A stretch of DNA of 64,000 nt from an uncultured Candidatus Saccharibacteria bacterium. GTDB taxonomy: Bacteria > Patescibacteriota > Minisyncoccia > Phycocordibacterales > UBA1006. Location: positions 3,808 through 67,807 of the forward strand of contig CAYXKF010000003.1 of NCBI GenBank assembly GCA_964464735.1. The letters are read 5' to 3'. The notes beneath the pieces were generated by a model. That model did no database searches. It saw only the letters and a list, made by a program, of their open reading frames with translations, and was not told the DNA's origin. This document shows, piece after piece, positions 4,511 through 23,416 of this stretch (positions are counted from its first letter, which is position 1; each line of letters opens with the position of its first letter). The position numbers and the translations under genes were made by a program.

Positions 4511-5452
4511 TTATCGCAGTTTTAACAAAGCTCGTTTAAAGTCGTTAAGCGCTGTTTCAATCGCGTCGGCACGGTCTTCAAACTGGCTTACCGCCCTAAG
4601 CGCATACAGGGGTTGTTCCTCGACCTGTGCAAGACCATCAATAACCGTTACCTTAAATGCAATAAGCGTATTTACCAGCTGCAGATGCACCGCAATCATC
4701 GATTCGGGCACCGTGATATTGCGCAACTGATCAATCATGCGCCCGTATGGAATAGCGACTGAATCATGCAGCTCATCCGGCACATTACCCAATCGTGCAG
4801 CTTGAAACATTTCGGCGACTGCGGCAGGAATGATGTTATTTTTATGAATTTTAAAGAAATCATCGATCTGAAGCAGGTAGGTCTGGCGCACTGAAGCGTC
4901 GTCAGGCACCGTTTTAAGATCAGCCGCAGTGATGCCCGTATTTGGCACTTGGTTTACATATGCAATAAACACATCGGTAAGTTCGTCTTGGCGTGCAGGT
5001 GTAAGCTGGTCAGATTGTTCTAAATACGCAACTGCCGCATATAATTGGCGCTGAAAAAGTTCGCTTTCACTTTGCGGCGCAGTCATTTGCACCTCACCGC
5101 CAGATTGGTTTTTTAAAAACTGCTTGCGTTCCATGATAAATGCGCCATCAGAAATGCCGTCAGCGTCAGTATCCTTATTATTGGGATCAGTACCCCAAAG
5201 CGATTCCTCCCAATCAGCAATACCATCTTGATCGGCGTCGTTTCCAAATGCTTGTTCAAGCACAACGGCCGGCACAGCGGGAATATCTTTACCAAATTGT
5301 TTTGGCTGCTTTACATGCGTCTCTTTTCCAAAACGTTCAATAAGAAAAACTGCTAACAAAACAGCAATAACAATGCCAAGCGCGATGGCAACTTTTTTAC
5401 TCGGAAGCAGTGATCGTATGCGTTCACTAACCATGTTGCCCAAGTATAGCAC
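4511..5452 (-). CDS. membrane-anchored hypothetical protein with two Dx[DN]xDG calcium-binding-like motifs
   Basis: 313-aa ORF with an N-terminal TM helix (VAIALGIVIAVLLAVFLI). Contains DADQDGIADWEE and DKDTDADGISDG, which resemble thrombospondin-type-3 or EF-hand-like Ca-binding loops. Its stop is 5 nt from the next start. Confidence 0.6.
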   Translation of the reverse strand: MLYLGNMVSERIRSLLPSKKVAIALGIVIAVLLAVFLIERFGKETHVKQPKQFGKDIPAVPAVVLEQAFGNDADQDGIADWEESLWGTDPNNKDTDADGISDGAFIMERKQFLKNQSGGEVQMTAPQSESELFQRQLYAAVAYLEQSDQLTPARQDELTDVFIAYVNQVPNTGITAADLKTVPDDASVRQTYLLQIDDFFKIHKNNIIPAAVAEMFQAARLGNVPDELHDSVAIPYGRMIDQLRNITVPESMIAVHLQLVNTLIAFKVTVIDGLAQVEEQPLYALRAVSQFEDRADAIETALNDFKRALLKLR

Positions 5453-5473: not shown

Positions 5474-6280
5474 TTAGATGAGTTTTTTTACCAGCGCGAT
5501 CCATATACCCCATGGAATATCCTCGGCGCGCACATCAGGCGACAACTTAAGCGAGTCCAATGCATTGCGAAGTAGCGGTTCGGAAACGGTTTCTTTAAGA
5601 TTTTTAACCAATTGCTTACGTTTGTGAGCAAAAGCGCTTTTCGTTATAGCAAAAAACGCCTTTTCGGAAATGCCTTTTTGCCCATGGTTAATACCATTAA
5701 TAGTAATAACCGCCGAAGTTACCTTAGGTGGAGGCGAAAACGCCTGCTTTGATACCGTAAAGCCATGTTTTGGCGTACCAAAATAATGTACCGCCCATGC
5801 CAAAATGCTTCCCTTGCCATCACGCGCAACAATACGATCAGCGACCTCCTTTTGTATCAAAAGGGTCATGTCGGTTGGCTGGCTTGGTGTAGTTAGCAAT
5901 GCTTCGATCAGCGATCCAGTGATATTGTATGGAATATTGGCAACGACTTTGTACGAATGGTCCAACAGCATTTTTTGCGTAGCGACCCAATTCATAATAT
6001 CGTCGTTTACGATCGATAATTGTCTTGCGGCTATTTCAGCTGCAAATATTTCGTTAAGTAACGGAATTAAATCGCGATCTTTTTCGACCGCAACTACATG
6101 CGCGCCGGTTGCCAGCAACCGTTTAGTCAAAGCGCCTTTTCCTGGGCCGATTTCAAGGATCCTATCCTGTGGAGTGATATGTGATATTTCGACAATGCGT
6201 TTTAATACCCGCGCATCTTTTAAAAAATGCTGGCCGAAATTCTTTTTTGCAATATGACGTGATGGTTGCATACCTACCAA
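5474..6280 (-). CDS. rsmA: 16S rRNA (adenine1518/1519-N6)-dimethyltransferase RsmA/KsgA
   Basis: Motifs FGQHFL, EIGPGKGALT (SAM-binding) and NIPYNI are diagnostic of KsgA/Dim1. The likely true start is MQPSR (6271). Confidence 0.9.
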   Translation of the reverse strand: MVGMQPSRHIAKKNFGQHFLKDARVLKRIVEISHITPQDRILEIGPGKGALTKRLLATGAHVVAVEKDRDLIPLLNEIFAAEIAARQLSIVNDDIMNWVATQKMLLDHSYKVVANIPYNITGSLIEALLTTPSQPTDMTLLIQKEVADRIVARDGKGSILAWAVHYFGTPKHGFTVSKQAFSPPPKVTSAVITINGINHGQKGISEKAFFAITKSAFAHKRKQLVKNLKETVSEPLLRNALDSLKLSPDVRAEDIPWGIWIALVKKLI

Positions 6281-8220
6281 TCAAGATACACTGTTTTAAC
6301 GTGCGACGCATCCGACGGGTCACTGTTGCCGTCGTAACACACATATTCGGGCGGGATATCGGCCAAAAATTCCGACGGTGTCTGCCATCCTTGCTTGCCA
6401 TAAATCGTGCGCGTCGCGGCATAAGTCAAATACAACATTTCTTTTGCACGTGTCATCGCAACGTACATCAGTCGACGTTCCTCCTCGCGCTCTTCAACAT
6501 TTTTTGCCATGCGCTCGGCAGGAAATAGCCCTTGCTCTAGGCCCACTACGAACACGCGCTTAAATTCAAGCCCTTTGGCGGCATGGATCGTCATCATCGA
6601 GACCGCATCTTTTTTCTCATCGCGTTCATCGGCATCCGACATCAAGGCAATATCATCAAGCATTGCATCAAATTGGTTTTCAGGAAGATTATCATACCGC
6701 TTAGCAAACGACACCAATTCTTCAAGGTTCAGTAATCGTTCGGTCCCCTCTTCACCGCCCATGTCTTTATATAAATTAAGCAGTCCGCTTGCTTCCAGGG
6801 TTTTTCGCATGACCTCGCTTGGCGCATTTTTATTTGCATTACCAATACTAGCAAGCGCTTTTTGCACGGCGTCGTATCCGTTTTTTGCCGATGCTGCAAG
6901 GCTGCTAATTGACCCTGACAAAATATGAGCCAACGCCACTTTACCGATGCCGCGCTTAGGTGTTGTATAGATGCGTTTGTAGTCAGCAAAGCTTGCGCGG
7001 TTAAATGCAGCGCGCACATATGCCAGCGCTTCTTTGATTTCACGCCGTTCAAAGAACTTGGTTCCTACTACCGCGTACGGGATAGTTGACTCGATGCAGG
7101 CACCTTCAAGCACGCGCGACTGAAAGTGCTGCCGATATAAAATAGCCATTTCACTTAAGTGCACACCATCGCGCAGCGCTTGGCGGATTTTTTCAACAAC
7201 AAAACGTCCTTCGTCATATTCTGACATGGCACCATACATGCAAATGCGCTCACCTTCTGACTTAAATGCGCGGATATCTTTGGGTATACGAAGCGTGTTT
7301 TTTTCGATGACCGCATTTGATGCCGCAACAATCGTATCGGTAGAACGGTAATTGATGCCAAGCGTCACAATGCGCGTGCCCGGAAAGTCGCGTTCGAAAT
7401 TTAAAATATTGCGAATCTCGGCACCGCGCCAGCTGTAGATATTTTGATCACTATCGCCCACTACGCAAATGTTGTGCTTGTCGCCGACTAATAGTTTTAC
7501 CAGTTCGTATTGTAACTTGCTCGTATCCTGAAACTCATCAACGTGGATGTGCGACCACTGTTTATGGCACCATGCACGCACGTCGGCATTGTCGCGAATG
7601 ATCTCATATGGAAGCCGGATCAGGTCATCAAAATCGACCGATTGCGATTCTTTTTTTAAGGCTTCATAGCGCTCGCCAATACGTGCAATCAGTTCATCGC
7701 GATAATTTCCTTCGGCCATGTCGGCAAACGTCTGTCCATCACCGCGCACGCGCGAAATGCGGCTTTGAGTCGCCTTAGGATCAAGCTCTTTTGGGTTTAC
7801 GCCTTCTCTTTCGTACGCATCCTTAATCAAATCAAGCGCATCGTCGCGATCGAGTATCGAAAATTGTTTACCGTAACCAACATGATGCCCATGCTCGCGC
7901 AGTAACCGCACACCAAGACTGTGAAATGTGCATAACAGTGGCGTTGCAGCGTAATCAAATGGAGAAACGTTCAAAAGTAATTGCATGCGTTCGCGCATTT
8001 CGGCAGCAGCCTTATTGGTAAACGTGATTCCTAAAATGGTACGCGCAGGAATACCGTTTTGGATCATGTAAAGCATCCGATACGTCAACGTTTTTGTTTT
8101 TCCTGCCCCCGCCCCCGCAACAACCAACAATGGTCCATCAATTGCTGTTGTTGCAGCGCGTTGATCGTCGTTTAATTCGGCAAGATATTTTTCCATGCGA
8201 CCGAGTATACCCCCACACAA
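6274..8220 (-). CDS. pcrA: ATP-dependent DNA helicase, UvrD/PcrA family
   Basis: Walker A AGAGAGKTKTL, FTNKAAAEMRER (motif Ia), DEFQDTS (DEAD-like motif II) and C-terminal helicase motifs. Overlaps rsmA by 7 nt. The likely start is MEKYLAELNDDQ at 8196. Confidence 0.85.
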   Translation of the reverse strand: MCGGILGRMEKYLAELNDDQRAATTAIDGPLLVVAGAGAGKTKTLTYRMLYMIQNGIPARTILGITFTNKAAAEMRERMQLLLNVSPFDYAATPLLCTFHSLGVRLLREHGHHVGYGKQFSILDRDDALDLIKDAYEREGVNPKELDPKATQSRISRVRGDGQTFADMAEGNYRDELIARIGERYEALKKESQSVDFDDLIRLPYEIIRDNADVRAWCHKQWSHIHVDEFQDTSKLQYELVKLLVGDKHNICVVGDSDQNIYSWRGAEIRNILNFERDFPGTRIVTLGINYRSTDTIVAASNAVIEKNTLRIPKDIRAFKSEGERICMYGAMSEYDEGRFVVEKIRQALRDGVHLSEMAILYRQHFQSRVLEGACIESTIPYAVVGTKFFERREIKEALAYVRAAFNRASFADYKRIYTTPKRGIGKVALAHILSGSISSLAASAKNGYDAVQKALASIGNANKNAPSEVMRKTLEASGLLNLYKDMGGEEGTERLLNLEELVSFAKRYDNLPENQFDAMLDDIALMSDADERDEKKDAVSMMTIHAAKGLEFKRVFVVGLEQGLFPAERMAKNVEEREEERRLMYVAMTRAKEMLYLTYAATRTIYGKQGWQTPSEFLADIPPEYVCYDGNSDPSDASHVKTVYLDW

Positions 8221-8276
8221 ACTTTCTGTCCAAACTACTGGTGTGGCATATTAATTTCGTGCGGTATAATGCATGC

Positions 8277-8738
8277 ATGGATATTTGTTTTTACCCGGCC
8301 ACACTATTTATGTATGCACTGCGCCACTCTGGCGTGCAAACTTTGTGCACCGACATACTACAGCGTTTTGCATTCGCCGGGCACTATTCATTAGCCACTT
8401 ACCTTGTTTATTTTGCCGTAACGTATGCGCTTGAGCTTCCGGCGTATTGGTTTTTCTTGCGAAACGATTTTTCATTTTTAAAGATCGCGCGCCTAACACT
8501 AGTAGTAAATATCCTGACCCACCCTATTGTTTTTTGGATTTTCCCGCGCATTGCGCTGATGCAGCAATGGAACACCCTTACTTATTTACTTGCTGCCGAA
8601 TTTTTTGCCTTTGCGGTCGAAGCGGCCGCTTTAGTATGGCTGTATAACGTCAAAGCGCCCCAAGCAATTGCCGGAGCGCTTATCGCAAATATCGTTTCGT
8701 GGCAGTTAGGGCTGATGATTCTGCAAAAAATACTTTAG
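8277..8738 (+). CDS. small polytopic membrane protein, hypothetical
   Basis: I trimmed the track ORF 8094..8738 to the in-frame ATG at 8277 (MDICFYPATLF...), because the N-terminal extension is antisense to the helicase gene. About four hydrophobic helices. It is the only plus-strand gene in the first 22 kb. Confidence 0.45.
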   Translation: MDICFYPATLFMYALRHSGVQTLCTDILQRFAFAGHYSLATYLVYFAVTYALELPAYWFFLRNDFSFLKIARLTLVVNILTHPIVFWIFPRIALMQQWNTLTYLLAAEFFAFAVEAAALVWLYNVKAPQAIAGALIANIVSWQLGLMILQKIL

Positions 8739-9058
8739 CTCGTTTGGTTTGCTGTTTTTGCATCAATCAACAACGAATCAATTTCTTTTTTCAGCGTTTC
8801 AATTTCGCCGATAACCATATGTTCAAAATTTGTCAGCCGTGCTTTTAGGTACGCAACTACTTGTTCGGGTTCGGCATTTTGATCGAACATCGTTCCCAGT
8901 TCGGCTTGCGATTCTTCGGGAAGCGTTTCAAGTGCTTGTATCATCACACCCTTAAATACCACTTCACCTACATTTGCCAGCATCTCTTCTTTTTGCGCAT
9001 CAGGAAGATGGTCAAAGTAGAATGCCTGCGCGATTTGTTGATTGATGTCGTTGGTCAT
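8735..9058 (-). CDS. small acidic hypothetical protein (107 aa)
   Basis: Clean ORF lying 28 nt downstream of the 1449-aa gene. Probably the last gene of the giant-protein operon. Confidence 0.5.
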   Translation of the reverse strand: MTNDINQQIAQAFYFDHLPDAQKEEMLANVGEVVFKGVMIQALETLPEESQAELGTMFDQNAEPEQVVAYLKARLTNFEHMVIGEIETLKKEIDSLLIDAKTANQTS

Positions 9059-9086: not shown

Positions 9087-12000
9087 TTATTGTGAGCGCT
9101 TTTCAGCAATCTTATTGACCAAGCTCTCGACCCACTGGTGCACTGAAAAGTTTTCAGGATATGCCATAATGGATACTCCATATACTTCTTGTTCCATGAG
9201 GTGAATCTGCTGTTGCAACTTTTCCACCATTGGCATTTCACCCATAAAATCGTTTGTCATAAAATCACGAAGTGGCACATATGTCTGCTGGTCACCTGCG
9301 ACAACCTGATAAAAGTTCGCAACATTTTCAGCGCTGCGGCCTAGGGCCAAGACTGGCTCAAAGATTTTCTCGGCTAGAATGTCCCTGTGCTCAAGGGTCC
9401 TTTCACTAAAGACATCCGCAGCTGCTAGACGTTCGATCGCCTCTTGCGCACCACGGTGGAGATTTTCAGGCGTAACAAAGGCAGAAACAACTTCGTTAGG
9501 ATTGGTATTTGTCGCAGCATTTTCAACTGCTGCCGCTGTAAGATTTTGTGGCGCCTCTTGCTTAATAATGCCTTCAGTAGCATCAGTTTGAACTGTATCA
9601 GTTGCTGTATTTGCAACTCCTTCGGTTACATCTTGCGGCGCAGCTTCAATCGGTGTAGTTTGCGTAATCACTTCGGGTGTCGCGCTAACCGTCGACATGC
9701 CCGGCGGAATTTCTTGTTTGATGATGCCCTCGGTAGCATTTACCACATTTGATGCACCGACCGGCGCAACCTGGTCAATCAGCCTTCCGTCAGGCAACCG
9801 CTCGTCAACCGTACTGGTTCCCTGTGGTACCTCTTGCTTAATGAGCCCTTCGTTTACTGGAGGCACCGGCGTTTGCGGTAGCACGCCCATTTTCTGCAAG
9901 CGCGCATATTCTTCGGGTGAATAATTATCGCGTGATACGCTGTTAAAGTTACTGATCTGGTCTTTAGTCAAAGCGTCAGCATTTTGTGCCGAGCCACCTT
10001 TTGGATCCCAGTACAAGGTGTCTTCTGTGCCGCCAGTTCCATACGACGGTTCAATGCGAGGGGTCGATGCAGCTTGCGATACCCCTGCAGGACGAACTTG
10101 TTGGTTGCCTGTTTGCGAACCATTAGTATGAGTATGGGTTCCAGGATTTGCATGATTATGCGTTTGCGCCGCGCCTTGGCTCATCGAACCTTGTTGCAAA
10201 GGAGCCCCCGCAGCTGCAGCTGTCGCCCTTGCCTTTTCTTCGACAGCTTGTTGTGGAGCACTATAATGTTCAAAGGATTCAAGATCAGTGCGCAGCGGGA
10301 ACCCAAGCATGTTCGCAAGCATCGGCGCGCTGTAATTGTTCATTGTTGGCGGTTGGTAAAAACCAAACTTCGAATGAAATTCGTCCAAGAATTGCGGTGT
10401 CAATTTATTTTCGGCAGCGCGCGCCATCAATTCAAGCGTTACTGCTTTTTGCTCAAGCGACATCTTGCCTTCGGGATACTCCATGATTGTTTGAACAAAT
10501 GCTTTTACCGGGTCAATGGTTGCCTTATTTCCTCCTGCATACAAGTTTGCAAGGAATTTGTCCCCGAGGTCGCGGTCACCATGGAACCAATACGAAGCTA
10601 CAAAACCATGGTCGGTATTAATGCGATCGCGCAGCAATAGATTAAGCGCATTTAGTGCCGGCGAATTTGGACGCGACAAAAATCCAAGCATTTCGTTGTA
10701 ACGCGCATTGCCGGTAAAGTGCGGGAAGTCGACATTTTCAAGCGCTTTAGGATTTGGTGCAGTCGCTGCATTCGTATCAATATTCGTATTGCCACCATTT
10801 TGGCCGCCCGCAGCACCTGGCACTGTTTGTTCAATTAAACCACTGCCAACTTTTGATCCACCAACAGGAACTTGCTGATTACCACCAGTGTTTGTAGTTG
10901 GGTCACTAGGCGTCGTGGTACTGCTTCCTTGCGGAACTTCTTGTTTAATAATACCTTCGTTGTCATTTGGCCCTGCATCAGTATGCGTATCGCTTGGCGC
11001 GCCATCATAGCGATGGAAGTATTCGTGTTTTTCGATACCCGCGGCACCGCCTTCGGTATGCGAACCATCAAGCGTTTCGATGATGCCGCCCTTTGCGTCA
11101 TATTCGACCGAAGTCATGTCGCCGCTACCGTCAAGCTTAAGCACATAAGCGGCACCGACATTATAGGTGCGCACTTCGCCCTCGGGCGTAATGTATCCAA
11201 ATTTTTTCGCAAGCTCGACTGCTTCGTGTCGCGCAAAACTATGCAAGTCATCGCCCGGCTTGTAACCCAATGCAGCCTGTAGCTTAGGATCGTGTTCGAT
11301 CTGGCGCATAAAGGCATACGTAATACCGTCGTTCGGGCGGATTTTTGCCTCAATAGGGATGTCAGGATTAGCCGTTGTTTCAGGTGCTGCCGCTGGAGTT
11401 TTTGGTGCAGGTGATGTTTGGGTATCGTCTGCGCTTTCTTTTGCAGACGGTGCCGGTGTTTCTTGTTTGGCTTCATCAGCAGCCGGTGCTTGTTCGTCAT
11501 GCTTAGGCTGTGCATTTGCGTCACTTGGGTGTTCGGTTGCCGGCGCTTCGGTAGTTGCCGGGTGCGAGCCAAGGTCGACACCGGTTTTTACCTCATGTGC
11601 ACCATGTGATACAGTTGCAGTATCTTGATGACCAAAAAGCTTATCCAAAATTGCTTGCGAATTATTTGCTTGAGATGCAGGCGTACCAGTCGCAACGGTA
11701 TCGATATGTGGTTCTTGCATTGCAATCGTATCAACCGATGGGTTTTGACCCAAAGCAGCTGCAACAGTATCGCGCGACTGCTGTCCGGCTGCAGCCTTTA
11801 GACTATCTTGTGCAGATACACCCCCATTAGTTTGATTACCGTGTTGAGCAACCGTGTCAGTCGAAGGCACGTGCACTTCTTCTTCGACACCCGTGAACGG
11901 ATTTCGAAAATGAATAACGTCCGAGATACCCTTCATAAGAGGCTGCATGTTCTTTGCCTGCTCTTTAAGTATTTCTTGCCCAGTGTCGGTGTGTTCAAGA

Positions 12001-13436
12001 ACAGTACGCGCGATAGAGCCAGCACCAAAAGCACCCAAGCGTGTCGCAACATTAGTTAGGTTTTTATACCATTCTTCCTTAAACTTTAATTGCGCCGCTT
12101 CGCGTTGTACATCGGCAAACGTTTTAGTACCTGCTTCAAGTTCCTTCGAAAGCGCTTCTACTTTTTCTTGGTAAGTACCGCCAGCACCAAATTCGTCTCC
12201 CACTTTCCATTTGGCCTTGCTGATAGCCAACTTTATAGCTGCCGAACTTGCCATCCCCGCACCGGCACCGATCAAAAGCGCAGGAGTAAATACCGCAGCC
12301 GCAGTACCGGCACCTGCAAGTGCGGCAACAATAGCGGCTTTTTTTGTACGCGGATACTTGTCGATCGCCGCCATAATCTTTCCTTTAATAGTATCGTTTT
12401 TTGTTTCCGAAGCATGTGACGGGGTTCCTTCAAGCATCGCCTTAACATCAAACGTTGTCCTGCGATGAGCAAGCCCGCCAATGACAGACGTTACTGCGCC
12501 ACCCGTAGTACCCATGATGCCGCGAAGCCCAAACCCAAGCGTGCCCCAAATTGCGCCACTACGCACTGCCTTGCCAATACCCCCCGTTCCATTAAACCAC
12601 TTAGTAAAACCGCGCACCACATCGCGCGCACTGTTATCAAGTGTCTTATCCAATTGTTCGTGCATGAACTTGCTTTCGGTTTCAGTCAAAACCAGCGCAC
12701 GGTGGTCAGTATTTGCCAACAACGCAAGAGTTGCCAGTCTTTTCTCGGTAGTCAGGATTTCCTTTTGTAAACGATTGACCTCGTTTTGGTCAACACCCGC
12801 AGGATTGCTCATCGCATCACTTAAGGCTTTTTTTCGCTCAGCCAGAAATTGTGTATAAAAAAGGTTTTTTGAATCCAAGCCCTCGGCAAGGATACGTTCG
12901 ATCTGCCGGTTCTTTAATATTTGATAGTCATTAAGCTTCGCTTCGTAGGCCGCTTTCGCTGCAAGCGCCTCTTGTTCGGTCTTTGGCTGAAATCCAAGGC
13001 CCGACATGATGCTTTTCTTGACTTTGATCCATGTTCCTTTGTTTGCCTGGCGTTCAGCCGCAAGATACGCCATTTTCAGTTGGCGCAATTCAGCCATCTC
13101 GACCGAATCGCCTGGCCGGGGCCGGGCACCATCAAGGGGCTTTGCCAGTTGCTGCTTTATGCGATCACGTTTTTCTTCGTCAGTTTCTTCTTGTATTGGG
13201 TTTAAGAGAGCTTCCTGCTCTTCAGGCTCCTCTTCACCCGCGACAGGCTCGACAACCGGCGATTGTTCCACCTGGGTAGTCGTTTGCTGATTGGTGGTAT
13301 TTAAATTGTTTAACAATTGATCAATTGCACCGGCAGTATTTTGCTGTTGAACCTCAAGACCCGCCACGGTGTTATTCGCAGCCTCTATTTGCTGGTTAAG
13401 ATTATTAAGTGCGCTTAGATCAGGAATTCGGTTCAT
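9087..13436 (-). CDS. giant hypothetical protein (1449 aa) with N-terminal coiled coil, glycine-zipper hydrophobic segments and an internal EG(I/L)IKQE(V/I/A)PQG repeat
   Basis: Long uninterrupted ORF. The N-terminus is Gln/Asn-rich coiled coil. Gly-rich helices (GGIGKAVRSGAIWGTLGFGLRGIMGTTGGAVTSVIGGLA; AAIVAALAGAGTAAAVFTPALLIGAGAGMASSAAI). A Pro/Thr/Ala-rich linker. A 4-fold peptide repeat (GIIKQEVPQG-like). A His-rich patch (HNHANPGTHTHT). Confidence 0.8.
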   Translation of the reverse strand: MNRIPDLSALNNLNQQIEAANNTVAGLEVQQQNTAGAIDQLLNNLNTTNQQTTTQVEQSPVVEPVAGEEEPEEQEALLNPIQEETDEEKRDRIKQQLAKPLDGARPRPGDSVEMAELRQLKMAYLAAERQANKGTWIKVKKSIMSGLGFQPKTEQEALAAKAAYEAKLNDYQILKNRQIERILAEGLDSKNLFYTQFLAERKKALSDAMSNPAGVDQNEVNRLQKEILTTEKRLATLALLANTDHRALVLTETESKFMHEQLDKTLDNSARDVVRGFTKWFNGTGGIGKAVRSGAIWGTLGFGLRGIMGTTGGAVTSVIGGLAHRRTTFDVKAMLEGTPSHASETKNDTIKGKIMAAIDKYPRTKKAAIVAALAGAGTAAAVFTPALLIGAGAGMASSAAIKLAISKAKWKVGDEFGAGGTYQEKVEALSKELEAGTKTFADVQREAAQLKFKEEWYKNLTNVATRLGAFGAGSIARTVLEHTDTGQEILKEQAKNMQPLMKGISDVIHFRNPFTGVEEEVHVPSTDTVAQHGNQTNGGVSAQDSLKAAAGQQSRDTVAAALGQNPSVDTIAMQEPHIDTVATGTPASQANNSQAILDKLFGHQDTATVSHGAHEVKTGVDLGSHPATTEAPATEHPSDANAQPKHDEQAPAADEAKQETPAPSAKESADDTQTSPAPKTPAAAPETTANPDIPIEAKIRPNDGITYAFMRQIEHDPKLQAALGYKPGDDLHSFARHEAVELAKKFGYITPEGEVRTYNVGAAYVLKLDGSGDMTSVEYDAKGGIIETLDGSHTEGGAAGIEKHEYFHRYDGAPSDTHTDAGPNDNEGIIKQEVPQGSSTTTPSDPTTNTGGNQQVPVGGSKVGSGLIEQTVPGAAGGQNGGNTNIDTNAATAPNPKALENVDFPHFTGNARYNEMLGFLSRPNSPALNALNLLLRDRINTDHGFVASYWFHGDRDLGDKFLANLYAGGNKATIDPVKAFVQTIMEYPEGKMSLEQKAVTLELMARAAENKLTPQFLDEFHSKFGFYQPPTMNNYSAPMLANMLGFPLRTDLESFEHYSAPQQAVEEKARATAAAAGAPLQQGSMSQGAAQTHNHANPGTHTHTNGSQTGNQQVRPAGVSQAASTPRIEPSYGTGGTEDTLYWDPKGGSAQNADALTKDQISNFNSVSRDNYSPEEYARLQKMGVLPQTPVPPVNEGLIKQEVPQGTSTVDERLPDGRLIDQVAPVGASNVVNATEGIIKQEIPPGMSTVSATPEVITQTTPIEAAPQDVTEGVANTATDTVQTDATEGIIKQEAPQNLTAAAVENAATNTNPNEVVSAFVTPENLHRGAQEAIERLAAADVFSERTLEHRDILAEKIFEPVLALGRSAENVANFYQVVAGDQQTYVPLRDFMTNDFMGEMPMVEKLQQQIHLMEQEVYGVSIMAYPENFSVHQWVESLVNKIAEKRSQ

Positions 13437-13502: not shown

Positions 13503-16500
13503 CTATTTTTCAATAAGCTTAGCACCAATACCCTTAAGGTAGGTGTTAATATTATCGGTATTTTTCGAATAATTTTTTGTAATCTTAAGCAAGTCGCCAA
13601 CTTCTTCGACAATACCCGCTTTTTCCAATTGGGTGACAATTGCATCACGACGAGGAATAGGAAGACCAAGTTCAATTCCTAATTTTGTAATATCGATTCC
13701 CTTACTATTAGCAGCAAGAATTTTTTTAACCACATCGGTAATTTTTTCATCAACAGCTTCTTTGTTTTCAAGAGGCAACCCAAGTGCCTTAAGTTCGTTA
13801 TCGAATAGTGCATTGATCGAAGCTTTGGCCAAATCCATTGATTTCGAAATAGTGGTATATTCTTTGCCCTTATTATCTTTTGTGATAGCAATATATTTTC
13901 CGTCTTTTAAATTAATACTATTTAAAGCATCGGCACGGCGCTTTTCAATATCAGCTTTTTTCGCTTCAAGGTCGTCAGCAGTTTCTTCTTTTTTTCCATC
14001 AACCAAAGCAAGTTCAGTATCGATAATTTGTTCGATTTTTTCCAATTTATCTTGATTACCCAAAAGCCAGTGAGAAATCATACTTTCGAGCCGAACCGTT
14101 ACTCCACGGTCAGCATAGGTATACTTGCTTGAAAGTAGTTCTTCCACCTTGCCTAGACCACCAACTTTTTCAGCAAGCAGCACGATCTTATCAACTAAAA
14201 CAGACGTAAGAATCTCAAGAGCTCTTTTATCTTTATTGTACAAAGCCTGAACTTTCGGCAATTCTTTTTTTGCATTCTCGACAGCCTGATCCCCTAGCGT
14301 GGCGTTACTAATCCACGGCCCGCCAAGATGCTGATAGGTTCCCGAATCAGCATATGATCCATCGGGATTTAGCCGGATAAAGATATTAGTATCAGGTACA
14401 AGATATTCTCTTTTCTCTAAAATCTTTTTGATCATTTCAATCGTCTTTACTACTGCCTCGGGCCTTGGTCGTTCTTTGATATCAGCATCTTGCGTCTCGA
14501 TATCGTCCACTGGATCATCCGCATCGATTCCCCGTCGTTCTTCTTTCGATTGTTTTGAACCAGCCCCATCTCCTAAAAACTTGACTGCAACCGGTTTTAT
14601 TACTTGCCATACACCATTTACTAGTTGTGCTTCGCCGTAAGCAACTAATTGAATCTTTTTCGTATCGCTTGTTGGTTTATTGAGAAGCATAACGCTTGGA
14701 TTATTAAGATAGTATTCCCAATTGCCGTCAGTAAAGACATATTTTTGAACGCTTGGATCTTTTGAGATTCCCAAAAACGCCTTATGATCCTCTTTTTGGA
14801 CTAACAATTCAAAAATCTGTTCGCCGTTTGAGGCTTTGCGTGCATCAATCGAATTAAATCCTCCATTGACCGGGATTTTACAATACAATTTATGAGTAAA
14901 TGGCGGCTCGACGGGTTCAATTGTTTCTTTTTTCTCATCAACTGTCGGCGCATCGCCCCAATACATCTCGCCGCCACTTTCAAGTACTAATTTTCCATTC
15001 TCAGTTTTATAAATAATCGGTTTTGTAACGGTAATTTTAGACGGGCACTCTTTTGGTTGTGCATTTAATATCTTAAAAACATTATACAAAATGAGTTCAG
15101 GTGAAGCATACGCGGCGGCAAGGGCACGCTTGGTATTTGCGAAGGTCATTTCCATTCGACCATTTGGCAACGCTTTTCCATGATAAAATATAGAGGATTC
15201 ATCTTCTGGAGACATTTGTGCTACAGAGATAGGAAAACTTCCATCGGCATTAGGAATTGGAAAATACCAGATTTTGCCTTTGGTTTCTTTTTGTTCGGGA
15301 CTATTGGCATTAAGACCCTGCAAAGCGTCGTCAAGGCGCTTATCATATGCAAGGTAATTATCAATCTTGATTTCAAAAGGCAAAGTTTGGGCTTCGGCAA
15401 CATATTGTTCCTTAATGCCCTTAAGTTTTACATCAAGATCATTATATTCAATACCTGACGACAAGTAGTCCTTAAATTCTTGACCATAGCGATGTCCTGA
15501 AATCCCTCGTTCGCGCACAGCTTCATTCAGTGAATCATAAAATCGTTTATTAAAATCTTGTTCAATGATTGTTTTCCCACGGTTCTTTAATTTATGCTCA
15601 AAAGACTGTGCTATCTCATGCATTTGCACAAATGCAACTTTATCCATATCAGGCAACTTTTGCCCTAATATATTTTTTACATTTTCAAATTTCCTCGCAA
15701 CATCATTATATGTCCCGGTTAATTCATTTTCAGCATATAATTTTGTCCATTGAGCAGCCACGTCCGACAACTGTGCGATTTGAGTTCCTTTATAAGTAAT
15801 TGCCGTAGGTGTTACCTCATAGTCACTTGTTCCAACCTTTCCTAACGGAAGGTCCAGTGCATATTCCAATGTTTCTGTTTTCGCCTTTTTCTCGAAACGA
15901 TAATCAATAACCCCGCCCATTCCTTTTTCGGCTTTTAGTTCGTAACCAGCAAGTTCGCTCCAGGTTGCTAAGTCGTCGGCAACTTGTTTGTCAGTGGTCG
16001 TAAACGAACCGTTTTTAATTTGCTGAATAAACGACTTACGCACTGCTTCGCTGTATTTAGGATGCGCCTGTTTTTCAACAAGCTGTAATTGGCCAAACGC
16101 GTAAGCCTTAAATAGTTCGTCTTTTGGATACGTCTTAATAACACCCGATGCATTTTTTAGTTCATAACCCCTAGCTCCCGACGAAGCTAACGCGTAAGTG
16201 TCGCCATCGACAACAAAATCGTGCGTAGAAATTGCGTTTAAAATATATGTCTTAATACTTGCAGCTACTTTTTTATACTCCTCTTCGCGCGCATCATTAA
16301 GATCCTTAAGTTGCTGTTTGGCGTTTTGCAATTTTTCGGCACCTTCTTGCTTAACACGCTGTAGCGTCGCAACAAGTTCGGCGTTTGTTTTTGGAAGACT
16401 GTCGGCAGCAAGTCCAAGCGCAGCAAGCTGCTCGTTTGTCATGCCCTTAAACATGTCGGCGATTTTTTGCGCTTCGGCATCAATGGTATTGGCATCAAGG

Positions 16501-16664
16501 GACGCGTCTAATTGCTGCATCGCAGCAAGTACCGTTTCGTCTTTTTCAAGTGCTTTCTTTTTGGCCTCGATATTCTTTGCATGCGTAATTGCCTGCTCGA
16601 GCATGTTGGGGGTTACCCCTTTTTCCTTAAGCATTTTTACCAAGTCGCGTGCTTCAAAACCCAT
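13503..16664 (-). CDS. giant hypothetical protein (1053 aa) with C-terminal winged-helix resembling the FtsK gamma domain
   Basis: Long ORF with no Walker motifs. The C-terminus (ITKLGIELGLPIPRRDAIVTQLEKAGIVEEV) resembles the FtsK-gamma / wHTH consensus (..LQR.L.IGY.RAAR.ID.LE..GIV). Confidence 0.75.
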   Translation of the reverse strand: MGFEARDLVKMLKEKGVTPNMLEQAITHAKNIEAKKKALEKDETVLAAMQQLDASLDANTIDAEAQKIADMFKGMTNEQLAALGLAADSLPKTNAELVATLQRVKQEGAEKLQNAKQQLKDLNDAREEEYKKVAASIKTYILNAISTHDFVVDGDTYALASSGARGYELKNASGVIKTYPKDELFKAYAFGQLQLVEKQAHPKYSEAVRKSFIQQIKNGSFTTTDKQVADDLATWSELAGYELKAEKGMGGVIDYRFEKKAKTETLEYALDLPLGKVGTSDYEVTPTAITYKGTQIAQLSDVAAQWTKLYAENELTGTYNDVARKFENVKNILGQKLPDMDKVAFVQMHEIAQSFEHKLKNRGKTIIEQDFNKRFYDSLNEAVRERGISGHRYGQEFKDYLSSGIEYNDLDVKLKGIKEQYVAEAQTLPFEIKIDNYLAYDKRLDDALQGLNANSPEQKETKGKIWYFPIPNADGSFPISVAQMSPEDESSIFYHGKALPNGRMEMTFANTKRALAAAYASPELILYNVFKILNAQPKECPSKITVTKPIIYKTENGKLVLESGGEMYWGDAPTVDEKKETIEPVEPPFTHKLYCKIPVNGGFNSIDARKASNGEQIFELLVQKEDHKAFLGISKDPSVQKYVFTDGNWEYYLNNPSVMLLNKPTSDTKKIQLVAYGEAQLVNGVWQVIKPVAVKFLGDGAGSKQSKEERRGIDADDPVDDIETQDADIKERPRPEAVVKTIEMIKKILEKREYLVPDTNIFIRLNPDGSYADSGTYQHLGGPWISNATLGDQAVENAKKELPKVQALYNKDKRALEILTSVLVDKIVLLAEKVGGLGKVEELLSSKYTYADRGVTVRLESMISHWLLGNQDKLEKIEQIIDTELALVDGKKEETADDLEAKKADIEKRRADALNSINLKDGKYIAITKDNKGKEYTTISKSMDLAKASINALFDNELKALGLPLENKEAVDEKITDVVKKILAANSKGIDITKLGIELGLPIPRRDAIVTQLEKAGIVEEVGDLLKITKNYSKNTDNINTYLKGIGAKLIEK

Positions 16665-16696: not shown

Positions 16697-17992
16697 CTAT
16701 CGCAAAATAGTGCGAAGCTGGTCGTCCGTCATCGACTTAACGGTTGCCGTGTCCGAACTGTAAGCGTTGATCTCGATATGCAAATGCTGACCGTGCCCCG
16801 GCTGGCTTGCATTGATGCCGGTATGACCAACGGTACCAATTGTAGCGCCTGCAGTGATCGCATCACCCGGCTTTACCTTTACCTGCTCAAGATGCGCATA
16901 GCGGTAAAAATAATTTTTATCTGGGTTATACATAATGACCGTATTTCCGCCCTTCATCGAGCTGGTCGAAAGCGAATCGTCCTTGGTCCACGAACTTTCC
17001 GCCAAGACTACAATGCCGCGTTCCATGGCGTTAACAGGATTTCCTTCGTGCGTAAACAAATCAAGCGCGTCGTGATGGTTTTCGCCCGCTCCAAAACTAA
17101 ATACCTTAAGTGGCTTAGTGCCCGCAATATCAGCTATTTGCGCATCATAAAAGCGTTTTCCCAGGTATTCGATATATTTTTTGCGCACATCTTTGGTAAC
17201 ATACGGCGATATTTCGCGCACAATAATTGATTGCGGAGTCAGCGAATCGTGTGCCTTATGATACACATATTCGTCCGAATAATATAACACTGATACCACG
17301 TACGGGTTTGCCAACGCGATTTCAGGGCTTTCGCCCGAAGCTATTTTAGAAAGCGTATCGCGGGCATTGGCAATGATGGTTTCCATACGCTGGCGCATTT
17401 CGATAGAAAACTGTTCCATCCCTTTTTGGTTTATCGGATGAATATCAGCTGACGTACTTTCTGACGGTTGGGTTTTTGCATCCTTTGTGTGGCCAGGATT
17501 ATTTTTGGATGTTTTTTTGTCACTAGAATCATCTAACAGTTCACTAATGCCATAGGCGCCCGCCGCAGCGGCGACGGCGCCTATGCCAAGGAACTTTAAA
17601 AACTTGCCGCGTGGCATAGTACTTGTTTCGTTTACCGGCGCTTGATGCGTATCGGTATCGACTAAAGCTGACTCGTCTACTGTATTAGTATTTTCTTGCA
17701 CCACAGCTTCTCCTGCAGTATCTTCAGCAATTGGATTATCAATCTTTGCATCTTGTTGATCTGTCGATGCTGGGTTTAAAAGAGCCTCAAGTTCTTTTCT
17801 TTGCTGCAAGACGCTGCGTTCAAGATCGGCAAGATATGCTTCAAGTTCGATTTTATTTTTTGGAGTGCGATCACCAAGATTAATACCTTTGTTTGCCAAA
17901 AACTCCCTGATCTTTTTTGCTTCAGCGGTTTCAACATTATTGTTTGGTATGACATTTTCCCGCACCATAATAAGCAAGGGTTGCTTACGCAA
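16697..17992 (-). CDS. membrane-anchored M23 family metallopeptidase (LytM-like)
   Basis: C-terminal M23 signature with the HxH motif (GATIGTVGHTGINASQPGHGQHLHIEI). A central TM helix (FLGIGAVAAAAGAYGI). The N-terminal region is coiled coil. Confidence 0.85.
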   Translation of the reverse strand: MRKQPLLIMVRENVIPNNNVETAEAKKIREFLANKGINLGDRTPKNKIELEAYLADLERSVLQQRKELEALLNPASTDQQDAKIDNPIAEDTAGEAVVQENTNTVDESALVDTDTHQAPVNETSTMPRGKFLKFLGIGAVAAAAGAYGISELLDDSSDKKTSKNNPGHTKDAKTQPSESTSADIHPINQKGMEQFSIEMRQRMETIIANARDTLSKIASGESPEIALANPYVVSVLYYSDEYVYHKAHDSLTPQSIIVREISPYVTKDVRKKYIEYLGKRFYDAQIADIAGTKPLKVFSFGAGENHHDALDLFTHEGNPVNAMERGIVVLAESSWTKDDSLSTSSMKGGNTVIMYNPDKNYFYRYAHLEQVKVKPGDAITAGATIGTVGHTGINASQPGHGQHLHIEINAYSSDTATVKSMTDDQLRTILR

Positions 17993-19580
17993 ACTTTACT
18001 GCCAACGTATCGCTTTTTAATTTAATGCGTGCAATCTTTTTGCCAAGCTTCCCTTCAAGATATTCTTTAAGCTTGTCACCCAAGCTGTTTAATTGATCAA
18101 GAGGGATTTTTGATTTCACTAAACTATTCGCATCGATCTTAAGACTTTTTGGATCAACGGCAATGGTATCATCTTGATTATCGATTATCGCAAAGATATG
18201 GGGGCTCCCAACAGCAAGACCTTTTAGCCCAACACCTTCGAACTGCGCATTAATGTGCCAATTTAATACTCCTGCGTCGATGTGCAAACTTGAAAGCTTT
18301 ATAGGCTGACCTTTTATGACATTAGCTAGAAGATTTTTTATTTCTGCTTCGATATCACGTACAGCATATTCGACATCAAACTTATTTCGCTCGATTTCTT
18401 CAGCAATGGCCTTATCACCGACTTCAGGCTGCTCAAGCATGTTGTTTTGCCTAAACCATTCAAGGGCGTCCTTGTCTGATGTGAAGGAAAAATGTTTAGG
18501 CTCTACACCAGACATAATAGCCAAGATTTCCTGAAAACCGGCACCGCCCCGGCGAAGCATGGTTTCAAGTGTTTGCCCATGATTACTCCACGCATAAATT
18601 TCGTACGGAAGTATCGTATCCCATTTTATAAAATATGCATTAGGATATTCACTGCTCATGATTGGATATCCTTTTGGATATTTTTTCTTCATGTATTCTA
18701 GTTTTTCCGCGTACGGCAATTTAAATGAATTAAAATCGATACCCGAAGAGTCTTTCATTTCCATATACGTAATACCTCCGCGGACTTTTGTATGTGGATA
18801 TTTTTCAAGATGAGCCCTAAGAAGCTTTTGTATTTCAGGATCAAGCGCTGCAACATCTTCTATGGTTACATTACTTTTTGATTTAAGTTTTTCACTGATT
18901 AAATTCAAAGATTCGATGCCCATGTCGCGCGCTAAATTATGAGGCACTCCAAATTGGTTAAGCTTGTTTGCAGTTTCTTGCTCGGCAGATTCACTAATAA
19001 CCTCAGGTTCTTCTTTTTTATCTTCAGACGTAGTTTCTTCGACAACAGGCGCAGCTTCTACTACTGGTTCAATCGGAGCAATTGGCTGTTCGTCTTTTAT
19101 TTCTTCTTTACTTGATTCCTCTTCTTTAGGAGTTTCTTCGACAACAGGTTCAACTGATTCAGCGACAGGAGCTACCTCATCCACAGCTGGCATTTCTTCA
19201 GCTGCTGGTTTTTCGGCTTCGTTAAATAACTGCATCATTTCATCGAGCTCGGCTTTTGTTTTTGGCCAAACCTCAGTAGGAATATCACTGATATCTATTT
19301 TAAGCGTGTTTACCAAATATGCTTTTAGATCTTCGATATTAAACTCAATCGGTTCAGATTCGACGACTGGCGTAGAAACTTCAATAACCGGAGTTTCACT
19401 AGCAGCTGCCACTTCGGCTTCCCTTGCCTTTTCTTCTGCCTCTTTTCTACGCCGTTCCATTTCGGCAGCTGCCCTTTGCTTTGCCACTGCTTCCGCTCGC
19501 TTAAACGCAGCTCGAAACTGTTCGGCCGTGATGCCTTTTTTATTGTTCTCGACTGCAAGTTTGTTTGGATTGAACATCAT
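17985..19580 (-). CDS. hypothetical protein (531 aa) with acidic Glu/Pro/Val-rich N-terminal low-complexity region
   Basis: Clean ORF overlapping the downstream gene by 8 nt and starting 5 nt after the upstream stop. The PVVE/EEPE repeat region is followed by a globular C-terminal domain. Confidence 0.7.
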   Translation of the reverse strand: MMFNPNKLAVENNKKGITAEQFRAAFKRAEAVAKQRAAAEMERRRKEAEEKAREAEVAAASETPVIEVSTPVVESEPIEFNIEDLKAYLVNTLKIDISDIPTEVWPKTKAELDEMMQLFNEAEKPAAEEMPAVDEVAPVAESVEPVVEETPKEEESSKEEIKDEQPIAPIEPVVEAAPVVEETTSEDKKEEPEVISESAEQETANKLNQFGVPHNLARDMGIESLNLISEKLKSKSNVTIEDVAALDPEIQKLLRAHLEKYPHTKVRGGITYMEMKDSSGIDFNSFKLPYAEKLEYMKKKYPKGYPIMSSEYPNAYFIKWDTILPYEIYAWSNHGQTLETMLRRGGAGFQEILAIMSGVEPKHFSFTSDKDALEWFRQNNMLEQPEVGDKAIAEEIERNKFDVEYAVRDIEAEIKNLLANVIKGQPIKLSSLHIDAGVLNWHINAQFEGVGLKGLAVGSPHIFAIIDNQDDTIAVDPKSLKIDANSLVKSKIPLDQLNSLGDKLKEYLEGKLGKKIARIKLKSDTLAVKFA

Positions 19581-22309: not shown

Positions 22310-23416
22310 ATGCTTCGCCGAACTATATCTAATGCCCTGCATTATGTTGCGACCGTTCCGGCCGCAGTTTTATTGTCAGCATTTCTAGTAGCCATCCCGG
22401 TTGGCGTTTTTGCGTTATCCGTTGTCGACGTTTTTGGCAGCAAGGCGCATGCTGATAGCCCAATTACCCGAAACGACGCAATGGCAACCATGGCGGTACT
22501 GTCGCCCGCGCAGACCTTTATTGCTAAACAAGTTGCCTTTGCCGATACCGAAGTCGAGACCTTGGACGAAACGGCATTGGTCCCAGTGATCGGACCTAAA
22601 GGTACATCGGCCGACGTAATCGAGGAAGATACCGCTGGCAGTATTTCGATCCACCACGTACAATCGGGCGAAACGATTGAGCAAATTGCAAAAATGTACG
22701 GCGTTAAGACCTCGACCATCCGCGTTGCAAACAGTATTGCCGCGAAGGCGGGCATCAAGCCGGGGCAAGACCTGCTTATTTTGCCGGTTGATGGAGCACA
22801 ATATAAAGTACAAAAGGGTGACACTGTACGTTCGATCGCTAAAAAGTTTGGCGGTAAAAACATGACCGAAGCCGACCTTGAAAGCGCTATGTCAGATATT
22901 GCCATCTATAACGATATCGAAACCGATTCAGTATTAAAGGCTGGAACCGAACTGGTTATTCCAGGTGCCGAATTGGCAACGGTTACCACAACCGCCAAAA
23001 CAACAACGAAAGGAAGCAGCAAAATGACAAGCTTGCCTGCGGCTAAGGGCGGCAAGTACCAAGGCGGCAAAGATTACTTTAAGCGCGCATGGGGAGGGGT
23101 TCAGACACAAGGCTTCCACGATAAATACCGCGCCAAAGATTACGGCATTCCAATTGGATCAAAAATTGGCGCAGCAGCTGCAGGAACCGTGATCGCAGCC
23201 TGCAAAGGCTGGTGTGGTGGATACGGTAATGTAATTACCCTTTCGCATGACAACGGCACTCAAACATTGTACGCGCACCTAAGCCAAATTAATGTCACGC
23301 AAGGTCAGCAAGTACAGCAGTTCGAGACCATTGGACTTTCGGGATCAACTGGACGCTCGACCGGCCCGCACTTGCACTTTGAAATTCGCGGTGGTTGGGG
23401 TGACATTCCATTCTAA
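22310..23416 (+). CDS. secreted peptidoglycan hydrolase with 2x LysM plus M23 peptidase domain
   Basis: Signal/TM N-terminus. Two LysM repeats (HHVQSGETIEQIAKMYGV...; YKVQKGDTVRSIAKKFG...). C-terminal M23 (YGNVITLSHDNGTQTLYAHLSQ...GSTGRSTGPHLHFEI). Followed by an intrinsic terminator. Confidence 0.9.
   Translation: MLRRTISNALHYVATVPAAVLLSAFLVAIPVGVFALSVVDVFGSKAHADSPITRNDAMATMAVLSPAQTFIAKQVAFADTEVETLDETALVPVIGPKGTSADVIEEDTAGSISIHHVQSGETIEQIAKMYGVKTSTIRVANSIAAKAGIKPGQDLLILPVDGAQYKVQKGDTVRSIAKKFGGKNMTEADLESAMSDIAIYNDIETDSVLKAGTELVIPGAELATVTTTAKTTTKGSSKMTSLPAAKGGKYQGGKDYFKRAWGGVQTQGFHDKYRAKDYGIPIGSKIGAAAAGTVIAACKGWCGGYGNVITLSHDNGTQTLYAHLSQINVTQGQQVQQFETIGLSGSTGRSTGPHLHFEIRGGWGDIPF

Follow-up and report, generated by a model that had tools for sequence, protein, structure and literature searches.

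The window analyzed here is a stretch of 64,000 nucleotides (nt) from an uncultured Candidatus Saccharibacteria bacterium (assembly GCA_964464735.1, contig CAYXKF010000003.1, positions 3,808 to 67,807), and the subject of this analysis is one large gene of its minus strand that encodes an orphan protein of 1449 amino acids (aa). The genes found in the window (RsmA/KsgA, PcrA, TypA, RNase Y, a short trigger factor, the CCA-adding enzyme, XerC and three transfer RNAs) are those of a bacterial chromosome. The PcrA adjacent to the target shares 88% identity with a protein from a metagenome-assembled genome of uncultured Candidatus Saccharibacteria and 48% with that of another such genome. The open reading frame (ORF) was confirmed as given in the original prediction, a description made from the DNA letters alone, and starts with ATG. 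Its product can be divided into the following parts.

9087..13436, minus strand: whole ORF, 1449 aa plus stop codon; a singleton cluster in the NCBI-derived protein collection.
12591..13436, minus strand: aa 1–282, N-terminal region without a signal peptide (Gln/Asn-rich start, then an acidic stretch, then a charged helical, coiled-coil-like part), probably cytoplasmic; relatives have the same kind of charged N-terminus.
12474..12590, minus strand: aa 283–321, Gly-rich (36% Gly) amphipathic/hydrophobic stretch 1, with the basic cluster HRR at its end; in the alignment, the counterpart of the first Gly-rich hairpin of the family.
12219..12347, minus strand: aa 364–406, two-lobed Ala/Gly-rich hydrophobic segment between Lys clusters, the only strongly hydrophobic stretch; a probable membrane hairpin.
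12012..12071, minus strand: aa 456–475, weakly hydrophobic LGAFGAGS segment; aligns with the last membrane helix of the family before the linker.
11385..11939, minus strand: aa 500–684, low-complexity Ala/Pro/Thr/Glu/His-rich linker (stalk), recognized by composition; relatives have equivalent linkers.
10962..11384, minus strand: aa 685–825, conserved domain A (IRPNDGITYAFMRQIEHDP...YEY-type), the only part in common with the wider family.
10923..10958, minus strand: aa 827–838, motif copy 1, EGIIKQEVPQGS (pattern and DNA repeat finder).
10815..10847, minus strand: aa 864–874, degenerate motif copy GSGLIEQTVPG (sequence inspection).
10242..10799, minus strand: aa 880–1065, a probably globular part without detectable relatives.
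10125..10160, minus strand: aa 1093–1104, His patch HNHANPGTHTHT, not conserved in the close relative.
9816..9851, minus strand: aa 1196–1207, motif copy 2, EGLIKQEVPQGT (pattern and DNA repeat finder).
9756..9791, minus strand: aa 1216–1227, degenerate motif copy DGRLIDQVAPVG (sequence inspection).
9696..9731, minus strand: aa 1236–1247, motif copy 3, EGIIKQEIPPGM (pattern and DNA repeat finder).
9540..9575, minus strand: aa 1288–1299, motif copy 4, EGIIKQEAPQNL (pattern and DNA repeat finder).
9090..9524, minus strand: aa 1305–1449, C-terminal domain conserved only in near relatives (aa 1324–1448 are 66% identical to the L081 fragment, and the same sequence ends L082).

The region that ties this protein to other genomes is domain A. 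Our exhaustive HMMER scan with aa 250–1449 collected 74 proteins, 72 of which match a single segment of ~125 residues (aa ~685–825). The phmmer matches reach an E-value (E) of 5.7e-15 and all fall on aa ~670–820, and an iterated search recovers 72 of the 74. One of the hits (P0057, 681 aa, with about nine near-identical 70-residue repeats, E 1e-4) lacks domain A and was discarded as spurious. The consensus of the domain (alignment A1) reads ..I.KGEGIEHAFxRQIEHNP.LA..LG...DLH.FA..AH.LA...GYV...G.EVRV....AYEL....G...V.E...G...E.H..G..FE....YEY. The family members that carry a name are all annotated as hypothetical proteins (e.g. OGI59726.1 from Candidatus Nomurabacteria and MFA6257125.1 from Candidatus Paceibacterota), and no Pfam domain was detected in ten of its full-length members. 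The members range from 700 to 2100 aa (mostly 600–1200 aa in the comparison with the 1449 aa of the target), and the ORF of 1765 aa that occupies the syntenic position in a distant Saccharibacterium (L002) contains domain A as well (E 4.8e-14). Searches of Pfam, NCBIfam, PHROG, PADLOC and PDB sequences with the 1449-aa protein and its sub-domains returned no match. A word-indexed homologue search with the full protein returned the query alone, its candidates probably swamped by low-complexity words; the same kind of search with the domain-A alignment gave nothing, and direct scans of genome and metagenome contigs with the 1449-aa protein produced no relative. Relatives at the level of loci were reached via the neighboring PcrA, via the small partner protein described below and via a tighter domain-A alignment. 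Judged from these sequence comparisons, the 1449-aa protein diverges rapidly and belongs to a family, so far undescribed, that extends across the ultra-small Patescibacteria.

The AlphaFold model of domain A, built from a 40-sequence alignment, is confident (predicted local distance difference test, pLDDT, of 86.8) and consists of three helices followed by five strands. A Foldseek comparison of this model with the PDB and with the viral models of BFVD gave nothing significant. The best match in the PDB was the PepSY-like YpmB (2gu3; E 0.07, probability 0.75, template modeling score, TM-score, 0.21–0.23), and a YpmB-MreC model was also listed. In this non-significant match, helix 47–61 and strands 69–106 of the model are compared with the PepSY arrangement of a helix on a four-stranded sheet. 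The Pfam PepSY profile (PF03413) matched neither the whole protein, nor domain A alone at E up to 10, nor 10 relatives, and domain A is at best distantly PepSY-like. An assignment of the 'IRPNDGITY...' segment to LysM was also considered and dropped, there being no Pfam LysM match and the predicted fold being different.

Two architectures occur among domain-A proteins. Twelve members have only a classical N-terminal signal or anchor, some with Cys-rich repeats following it, and carry domain A at the extreme C-terminus, which makes it probable that the domain is extracytoplasmic. A second domain-A gene, whose 574-aa product likewise ends in the domain, was observed at L093:11823-13547 and L094:15972-17696, ~7 kb downstream of the main one and past homologues of the 313-aa and 951-aa proteins of the window. 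The two architectural classes can thus coexist within one genome. A C-terminal domain (...TGLKP...ET.EQYI.RALQKA..G.L) is also common in the family. Its homology to the C-terminal domain of the target, plausible by eye, could not be shown: hmmsearch with all filters off found nothing and hhalign gave a probability of ~1%.

The target lies 66 nt after an orphan gene for a 1053-aa protein and 28 nt before a gene for a protein of 107 aa. The neighbors that matter for its interpretation are these.

8735..9058, minus strand: gene for the DUF5663-like partner, a 107-aa acidic protein without a signal peptide, 28 nt downstream of the target.
6274..8220, minus strand: PcrA/UvrD helicase, the conserved downstream neighbor and synteny anchor.
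16697..17992, minus strand: membrane-anchored M23 peptidase, an operon neighbor.
22310..23416, plus strand: divergent LysM-M23 peptidase gene, the upstream border of the conserved block.

Domain-A genes in 52 metagenome loci share a pattern of gene order, in which a divergent LysM-M23 gene is followed by 0–4 variable genes, the domain-A gene, a DUF5663-like gene, PcrA, KsgA and the homologues of the 313-aa and 951-aa proteins. The block formed by LysM-M23, the domain-A gene, DUF5663, PcrA and KsgA is present in Saccharibacteria and on contigs named Paceibacterota and Nomurabacteria, and the target sits in the position expected from it, between LysM-M23 and PcrA-KsgA. In the distant Saccharibacterium L002 the same order is seen (a large ORF, a small protein, PcrA, KsgA and the 313-aa protein). 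Close relatives of the 107-aa protein give weak matches to PF18908 (DUF5663). A DUF5663-like gene is located on the same strand, within ~240 nt up- or downstream of the domain-A gene, in 27 of the ~43 loci that could be evaluated. As this pairing extends to loci that lack the synteny with PcrA, we consider the domain-A gene and the DUF5663-like gene a unit. A short contig of 731 bp (L137:263-541) contains a stand-alone 92-aa counterpart of the C-terminal domain of the target, directly followed by a DUF5663-like gene; the separation may stem from the splitting of a gene, from a frameshift or from an error of assembly.

A candidate for the same pair is found in the published data on S. epibionticum, where a hypothetical gene for a 767-aa protein, SEML1_0161, is followed by two DUF5663 genes, 0162 and 0163. 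SEML1_0161 and 0162 scored as growth-defective, then as essential, in transposon-insertion sequencing (Tn-seq), and one of the DUF5663 proteins of this species has a fold match to the C-terminal domain of trigger factor and to LTXXQ (Spy-like) chaperones (PMC10633639, supplement). Another candidate, chosen by its position beside PcrA, is SEML1_0669 (492 aa), which is non-essential in the same dataset (PMC10633639, supplement). Both genes are only candidate orthologues of the domain-A family, and no locus turned up in our search for the infB/fmt context of SEML1_0161.

The original prediction described three Gly/Ala-rich stretches with glycine-zipper spacing and proposed membrane insertion or a pore. 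The stretches are indeed present, at aa 283–321, 364–406 and 456–475, with no such segment beyond aa 475, and their membrane nature is supported by the family: Gly/Ala/Ser/Thr-rich hydrophobic segments precede domain A in 57 of 72 members and follow it in none of the 72. The order of elements in this region is a common one, starting with a Trp/basic lead-in and at least one Gly-rich hairpin that ends in a basic cluster, continuing with a charged helical segment of variable length and a Lys-rich lead-in to the last Gly-containing helix, and ending in a Pro-rich linker. In the family alignment, where identity over the membrane region is only 15–20%, stretch 1 corresponds to the first hairpin and stretch 3 to the last helix, and basic clusters flank each segment. 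The sole nearly invariant column of alignment A4 is a G inside aa 456–475. The segment at aa 364–406, alone in passing a Kyte-Doolittle threshold of 1.6, has the appearance of an extra hairpin. Stretches 1 and 3 each contain 2–3 charged residues. As for the glycine zipper, the looser small-xxx-small-xxx-small spacing occurs 13 times in the three stretches, whereas the canonical GxxxG occurs only three times. The AlphaFold model of aa 260–500 shows helices throughout at low confidence (pLDDT 59), with no confidently packed soluble fold in which the hydrophobic segments would be buried, and it is silent on how the helices pack. No N-terminal hydrophobic segment that could serve as a signal peptide was found in the target, and no LPXTG-like motif near its C-terminus, which ends in ...NKIAEKRSQ. 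Taken together with the position of domain A in the twelve signal-bearing members, this architecture would fit an N-in/C-out protein with ~970 C-terminal residues outside the cell.

The motif EG[IL]IKQE was located at aa 827, 1196, 1236 and 1288, and its positions in the window fall within ~15 nt of the DNA coordinates originally given for the four copies. The DNA repeat finder returned the same four copies as 29-nt repeats with 66–83% identity. A count of the strict pattern in 130 shuffled family proteins gave ~0.1 occurrences expected by chance, as compared with the four seen, all of them in the target. Two degenerate copies can be added by inspection, and the six are separated by 37, 332, 20, 20 and 52 aa, a spacing that is not the periodic one originally described. 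Within the 7-codon core of the four strict copies, pairwise comparison counted 21 synonymous versus 3 non-synonymous differences, whereas the flanks differ mostly non-synonymously. From the excess of synonymous differences in the core it follows that selection has kept the peptide, and that the likeness of the copies does not stem from a recent duplication. The Gln/Asn-rich character of the N-terminus (21 of the first 60 residues) and the His patch starting at aa 1093, two further elements of the original prediction, are likewise real.

None of the other 129 family proteins examined contains the motif. The only close relative that covers this region is the fragment L082, whose partner protein is 82% and C-terminal domain 66% identical to those of the target. 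It preserves the segment that precedes the repeats (YGTGG..D.LYWDPKGG...KMGVLP), and in the same place it has three tandem units, DQGPAIVEQVPGG (DQGPAI(T/V)(Q/E)Q(T/V)PGG..), which resemble the two degenerate copies of the target. The core common to the motif and these units is G-x-I-x-[QE]-x-[VT]-P-x-G, so that a homologue does contain a counterpart of the motif, albeit a diverged one; the His patch is not conserved there. The number, spacing and sequence of the motif copies turn over fast. On the level of the whole family, short repeats of the members' own were detected in 51 of the 130 proteins, versus 6 of 130 after shuffling. Many of these repeats are located on the downstream side of domain A, and Pro and Gly are frequent in them (e.g. 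IPMEDPNG, EPIKVGPNG and IEMPDPNS). A variable, repeat-bearing distal region is accordingly a trait of the family, and the EG(I/L)IKQE motif a trait of this lineage. A single pairwise comparison also revealed a weak internal similarity between aa 155–241 (12714-12974) and aa 1331–1425 (9165-9446), with 27% identity over 95 aa and E 2e-4.

Several other genes around the target deserve description. The upstream operon ORFs 13503-16664, 17985-19580 and 19586-22084, all on the minus strand, encode acidic, Lys/Glu-rich proteins of 1053, 531 and 832 aa, in which no membrane segment and no library match was detected; two of the three are singletons among ~15 billion proteins. As other genomes have unrelated genes between LysM-M23 and the domain-A gene, this interval appears to be a hypervariable insertion site. 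On the other side of the target, the gap between the DUF5663-like gene and PcrA is 515 nt, versus only ~50–100 nt in relatives. The plus-strand ORF 8094-8738 found in this gap encodes three strongly hydrophobic helices, has no Pfam match and may represent the lineage-specific insertion of a gene for a small membrane protein. Downstream of KsgA, the 951-aa and 313-aa proteins (1651-4506 and 4511-5452, minus strand) are part of the conserved block in many Patescibacteria loci. The former has no library match and the latter gives a weak match to the bacterial TSP3 (calcium-binding) repeat. As this is the only match of the 313-aa protein, a link to sortase via the gene after KsgA is unsupported. 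Finally, the plus strand encodes another helicase of the UvrD type at 45425-48415, ~37 kb from PcrA; this protein has 996 aa and carries a nuclease tail of the AddA/Cas4-like kind.

The interpretation that we favor, while putting its chances somewhat short of even, is that of a resident membrane-anchored envelope protein with an exposed stalk and multivalent short binding motifs. About 280 aa of charged coiled coil would stay in the cytoplasm, aa 283–321 and 364–406 would form membrane hairpins, and aa 456–475 would be the final, outward helix. The small residues of these Gly/Ala-rich stretches could permit tight helix-helix packing, as in an anchor and not a pore. The Pro/Thr/Glu-rich stalk would then place the ~125-aa alpha/beta domain A outside the cell, followed by a lineage-specific distal part of ~620 aa. 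Embedded there in Ser/Thr-rich, probably extended sequence, the four strict and two degenerate copies of G-[ILPA]-I-x-[QE]-x-[VTA]-P-x-G would most likely act together as a multivalent docking array for a single ligand of the cell wall or of the surface of the epibiont's host cell. The small acidic DUF5663-like protein would most likely act as a cytoplasmic chaperone or adaptor of its large neighbor. The adhesin or fiber module suggested in the original prediction is plausible in view of the probably extracellular ~970 C-terminal residues, the purifying selection on the motif and the counterpart in L082; on the other hand, the motif is missing from 129 members, its copies lack periodicity, and the protein has neither a signal peptide nor an LPXTG signal nor a fiber-type fold.

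Several observations weigh against the favored interpretation. Arg/Lys occur in stretches 1 and 3, whose hydrophobicity does not reach the usual thresholds. The similarity between aa 155–241, probably inside the cell, and aa 1331–1425, probably outside, fits it oddly. A motif missing in the other 129 members cannot explain the core function of the family, and the sequence comparisons failed to show homology between the C-terminal domain of the target and the common one. Moreover, a pure adhesin would not usually combine a large cytoplasmic domain with an anchor of several segments, nor sit beside housekeeping genes in a deeply conserved block.

The main rival, a possible but rather doubtful one in our estimate, considers the protein a trans-envelope coupler of cell-wall remodeling. 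The cytoplasmic coiled coil would sense or bind a partner, and the extracellular domain A, possibly PepSY-like, would position or regulate M23/LysM hydrolases in the manner of FtsX-EnvC/PcsB or YpmB (TseB), with the repeats as lineage-specific docking sites for wall or enzyme. Such a role is compatible with the favored docking function, the two not being exclusive. It draws on the LysM-M23 gene that most Saccharibacteria-type loci have either divergently adjacent to the domain-A gene or upstream of it at a distance of a few genes, on the homologue of the membrane-anchored M23 peptidase that lies just upstream on the same strand in L085, L105 and L106, and on the conservation of the block across classes, which suggests a housekeeping role. 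The ranking of YpmB and the YpmB-MreC model in Foldseek and the Tn-seq essentiality of SEML1_0161 and 0162/0163, a candidate orthologous pair, point the same way. However, the Foldseek match is non-significant (E 0.07, TM-score ~0.2) and has no Pfam PepSY match beside it. The neighborhood may reflect a frozen gene order instead of function, given that PcrA and KsgA belong to the same block, and a hypervariable distal half together with a length range of 700–2100 aa would be unusual for a housekeeping regulator.

The two remaining alternatives dispute the location of the protein. A monotopic or wholly cytoplasmic scaffold, whose hairpins would only dip into the inner leaflet and whose repeats and domain A would be on the cytoplasmic side, would account for the missing signal peptide, for the weak hydrophobicity of two of the three stretches, for the similarity between the N- and C-terminal helical regions and for a cytoplasmic partner protein. 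We regard it as improbable in view of the twelve paralogue-type members in which domain A follows a classical N-terminal signal or anchor, in some with Cys-rich repeats, of the Pro/Thr-rich linkers and Ser/Thr-rich repeat spacers typical of exposed regions, and of the lack of a hydrophobic segment after domain A in all 72 members. Very improbable, in our judgment, is a pore-former or secreted membrane-inserting effector, whose glycine-zipper helices would enter the host membrane after export with the DUF5663-like protein as an Eag-like secretion chaperone. Gly/Ala-rich hydrophobic segments without a signal peptide next to a small acidic protein, also without one, are what such an effector might look like, and a type IV secretion system is needed for the epibiotic growth of Saccharibacteria (PMC10633639). 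Yet neither the operon nor the conserved block contains a secretion-system gene, and a lysis context is lacking as well; domain A is shared with proteins that have an ordinary N-terminal signal or anchor; the hydrophobic segments lie within the chain between basic clusters, as resident anchors or hairpins do, with few strict GxxxG; and a gene without PHROG or PADLOC matches holds a fixed core-genome position across classes. The pore of the original prediction finds no support for the same reasons. A type IV secretion role was rejected on context and for want of matches. A prophage origin or a phage tape-measure function was rejected because of the missing PHROG match and the syntenic core-genome locus, and a function in anti-phage defense because of the missing PADLOC match.

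By sequence the protein fits no described family, and by design it resembles membrane-anchored modular surface proteins with short linear repeats. With the domain-A family it shares domain A itself, the upstream Gly/Ala-rich membrane segments, the low-complexity linker, the DUF5663-like neighbor and the position between LysM-M23 and PcrA-KsgA. It differs from most members in its greater length, the extra two-lobed hairpin, distal domains and an EG(I/L)IKQE repeat of its own, and in having no detectable match to the common C-terminal domain. The resemblance to YpmB/TseB of B. subtilis (2gu3) consists in a membrane-anchored, extracytoplasmic combination of a helix and an antiparallel sheet (predicted on the side of the target), with the Foldseek match spanning the helix and four strands. 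Unlike YpmB, domain A has an additional N-terminal helical pair with its most conserved motif, GEGIEHAFxRQIE, and the target exceeds YpmB tenfold in size. Among Gram-positive surface adhesins with short linear repeats in disordered regions, FnBPA binds fibronectin through its repeats as a tandem beta-zipper. The target likewise has several 10–12-residue motif copies in a probably exposed and extended region with Ser/Thr-rich spacers, the motif being selected while the spacers drift. In contrast to FnBPA-type adhesins, it has neither signal peptide nor LPXTG, is anchored by N-proximal membrane segments, and has an unrelated motif sequence. The same applies to LPXTG sortase-anchored adhesins in general, whose N-terminal signal peptide and C-terminal LPXTG with hydrophobic tail it lacks.

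The membrane hairpin of chlamydial Inc proteins is formed by a hydrophobic segment with two lobes and ~40 aa, and aa 364–406 of the target are two-lobed and of similar length. Organism and secretion route are different, there is no sequence relation, and the hairpin of the target is one of several Gly-rich segments, after which come another helix and a large part that is probably extracellular. Type VI effectors possess transmembrane domains with Gly-rich hydrophobic helices, which Eag chaperones shield, and in the target such helices are encoded beside a small cytoplasmic helper. Here the secretion-system context is lacking, the helper belongs to DUF5663 (PF18908), the hydrophobic segments lie inside the protein, and the gene is part of the core genome.

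Those Patescibacteria that have been cultivated grow attached to other bacteria, at an interface of which few proteins are known. A more far-reaching proposal, which at present we consider unlikely, is that the large domain-A protein and its DUF5663 partner constitute a Patescibacteria-specific essential envelope module. In such a module, a new extracellular fold on a stalk, held by a Gly-rich anchor and coupled to a cytoplasmic coiled coil, would be combined with a hypervariable tip (here the EG(I/L)IKQEVPQG array) that chooses a host surface or a wall structure. If SEML1_0161 and 0162 are the orthologous pair, the family would offer a determinant of the epibiotic lifestyle that is accessible to genetics. 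Overall, what had been an orphan hypothetical protein now belongs to a defined family with a confidently predicted domain that has no structural neighbor, a fixed partner gene, a conserved genomic position and a probably exposed, fast-evolving tip, which makes this family a concrete candidate for a role in host contact or in wall remodeling.

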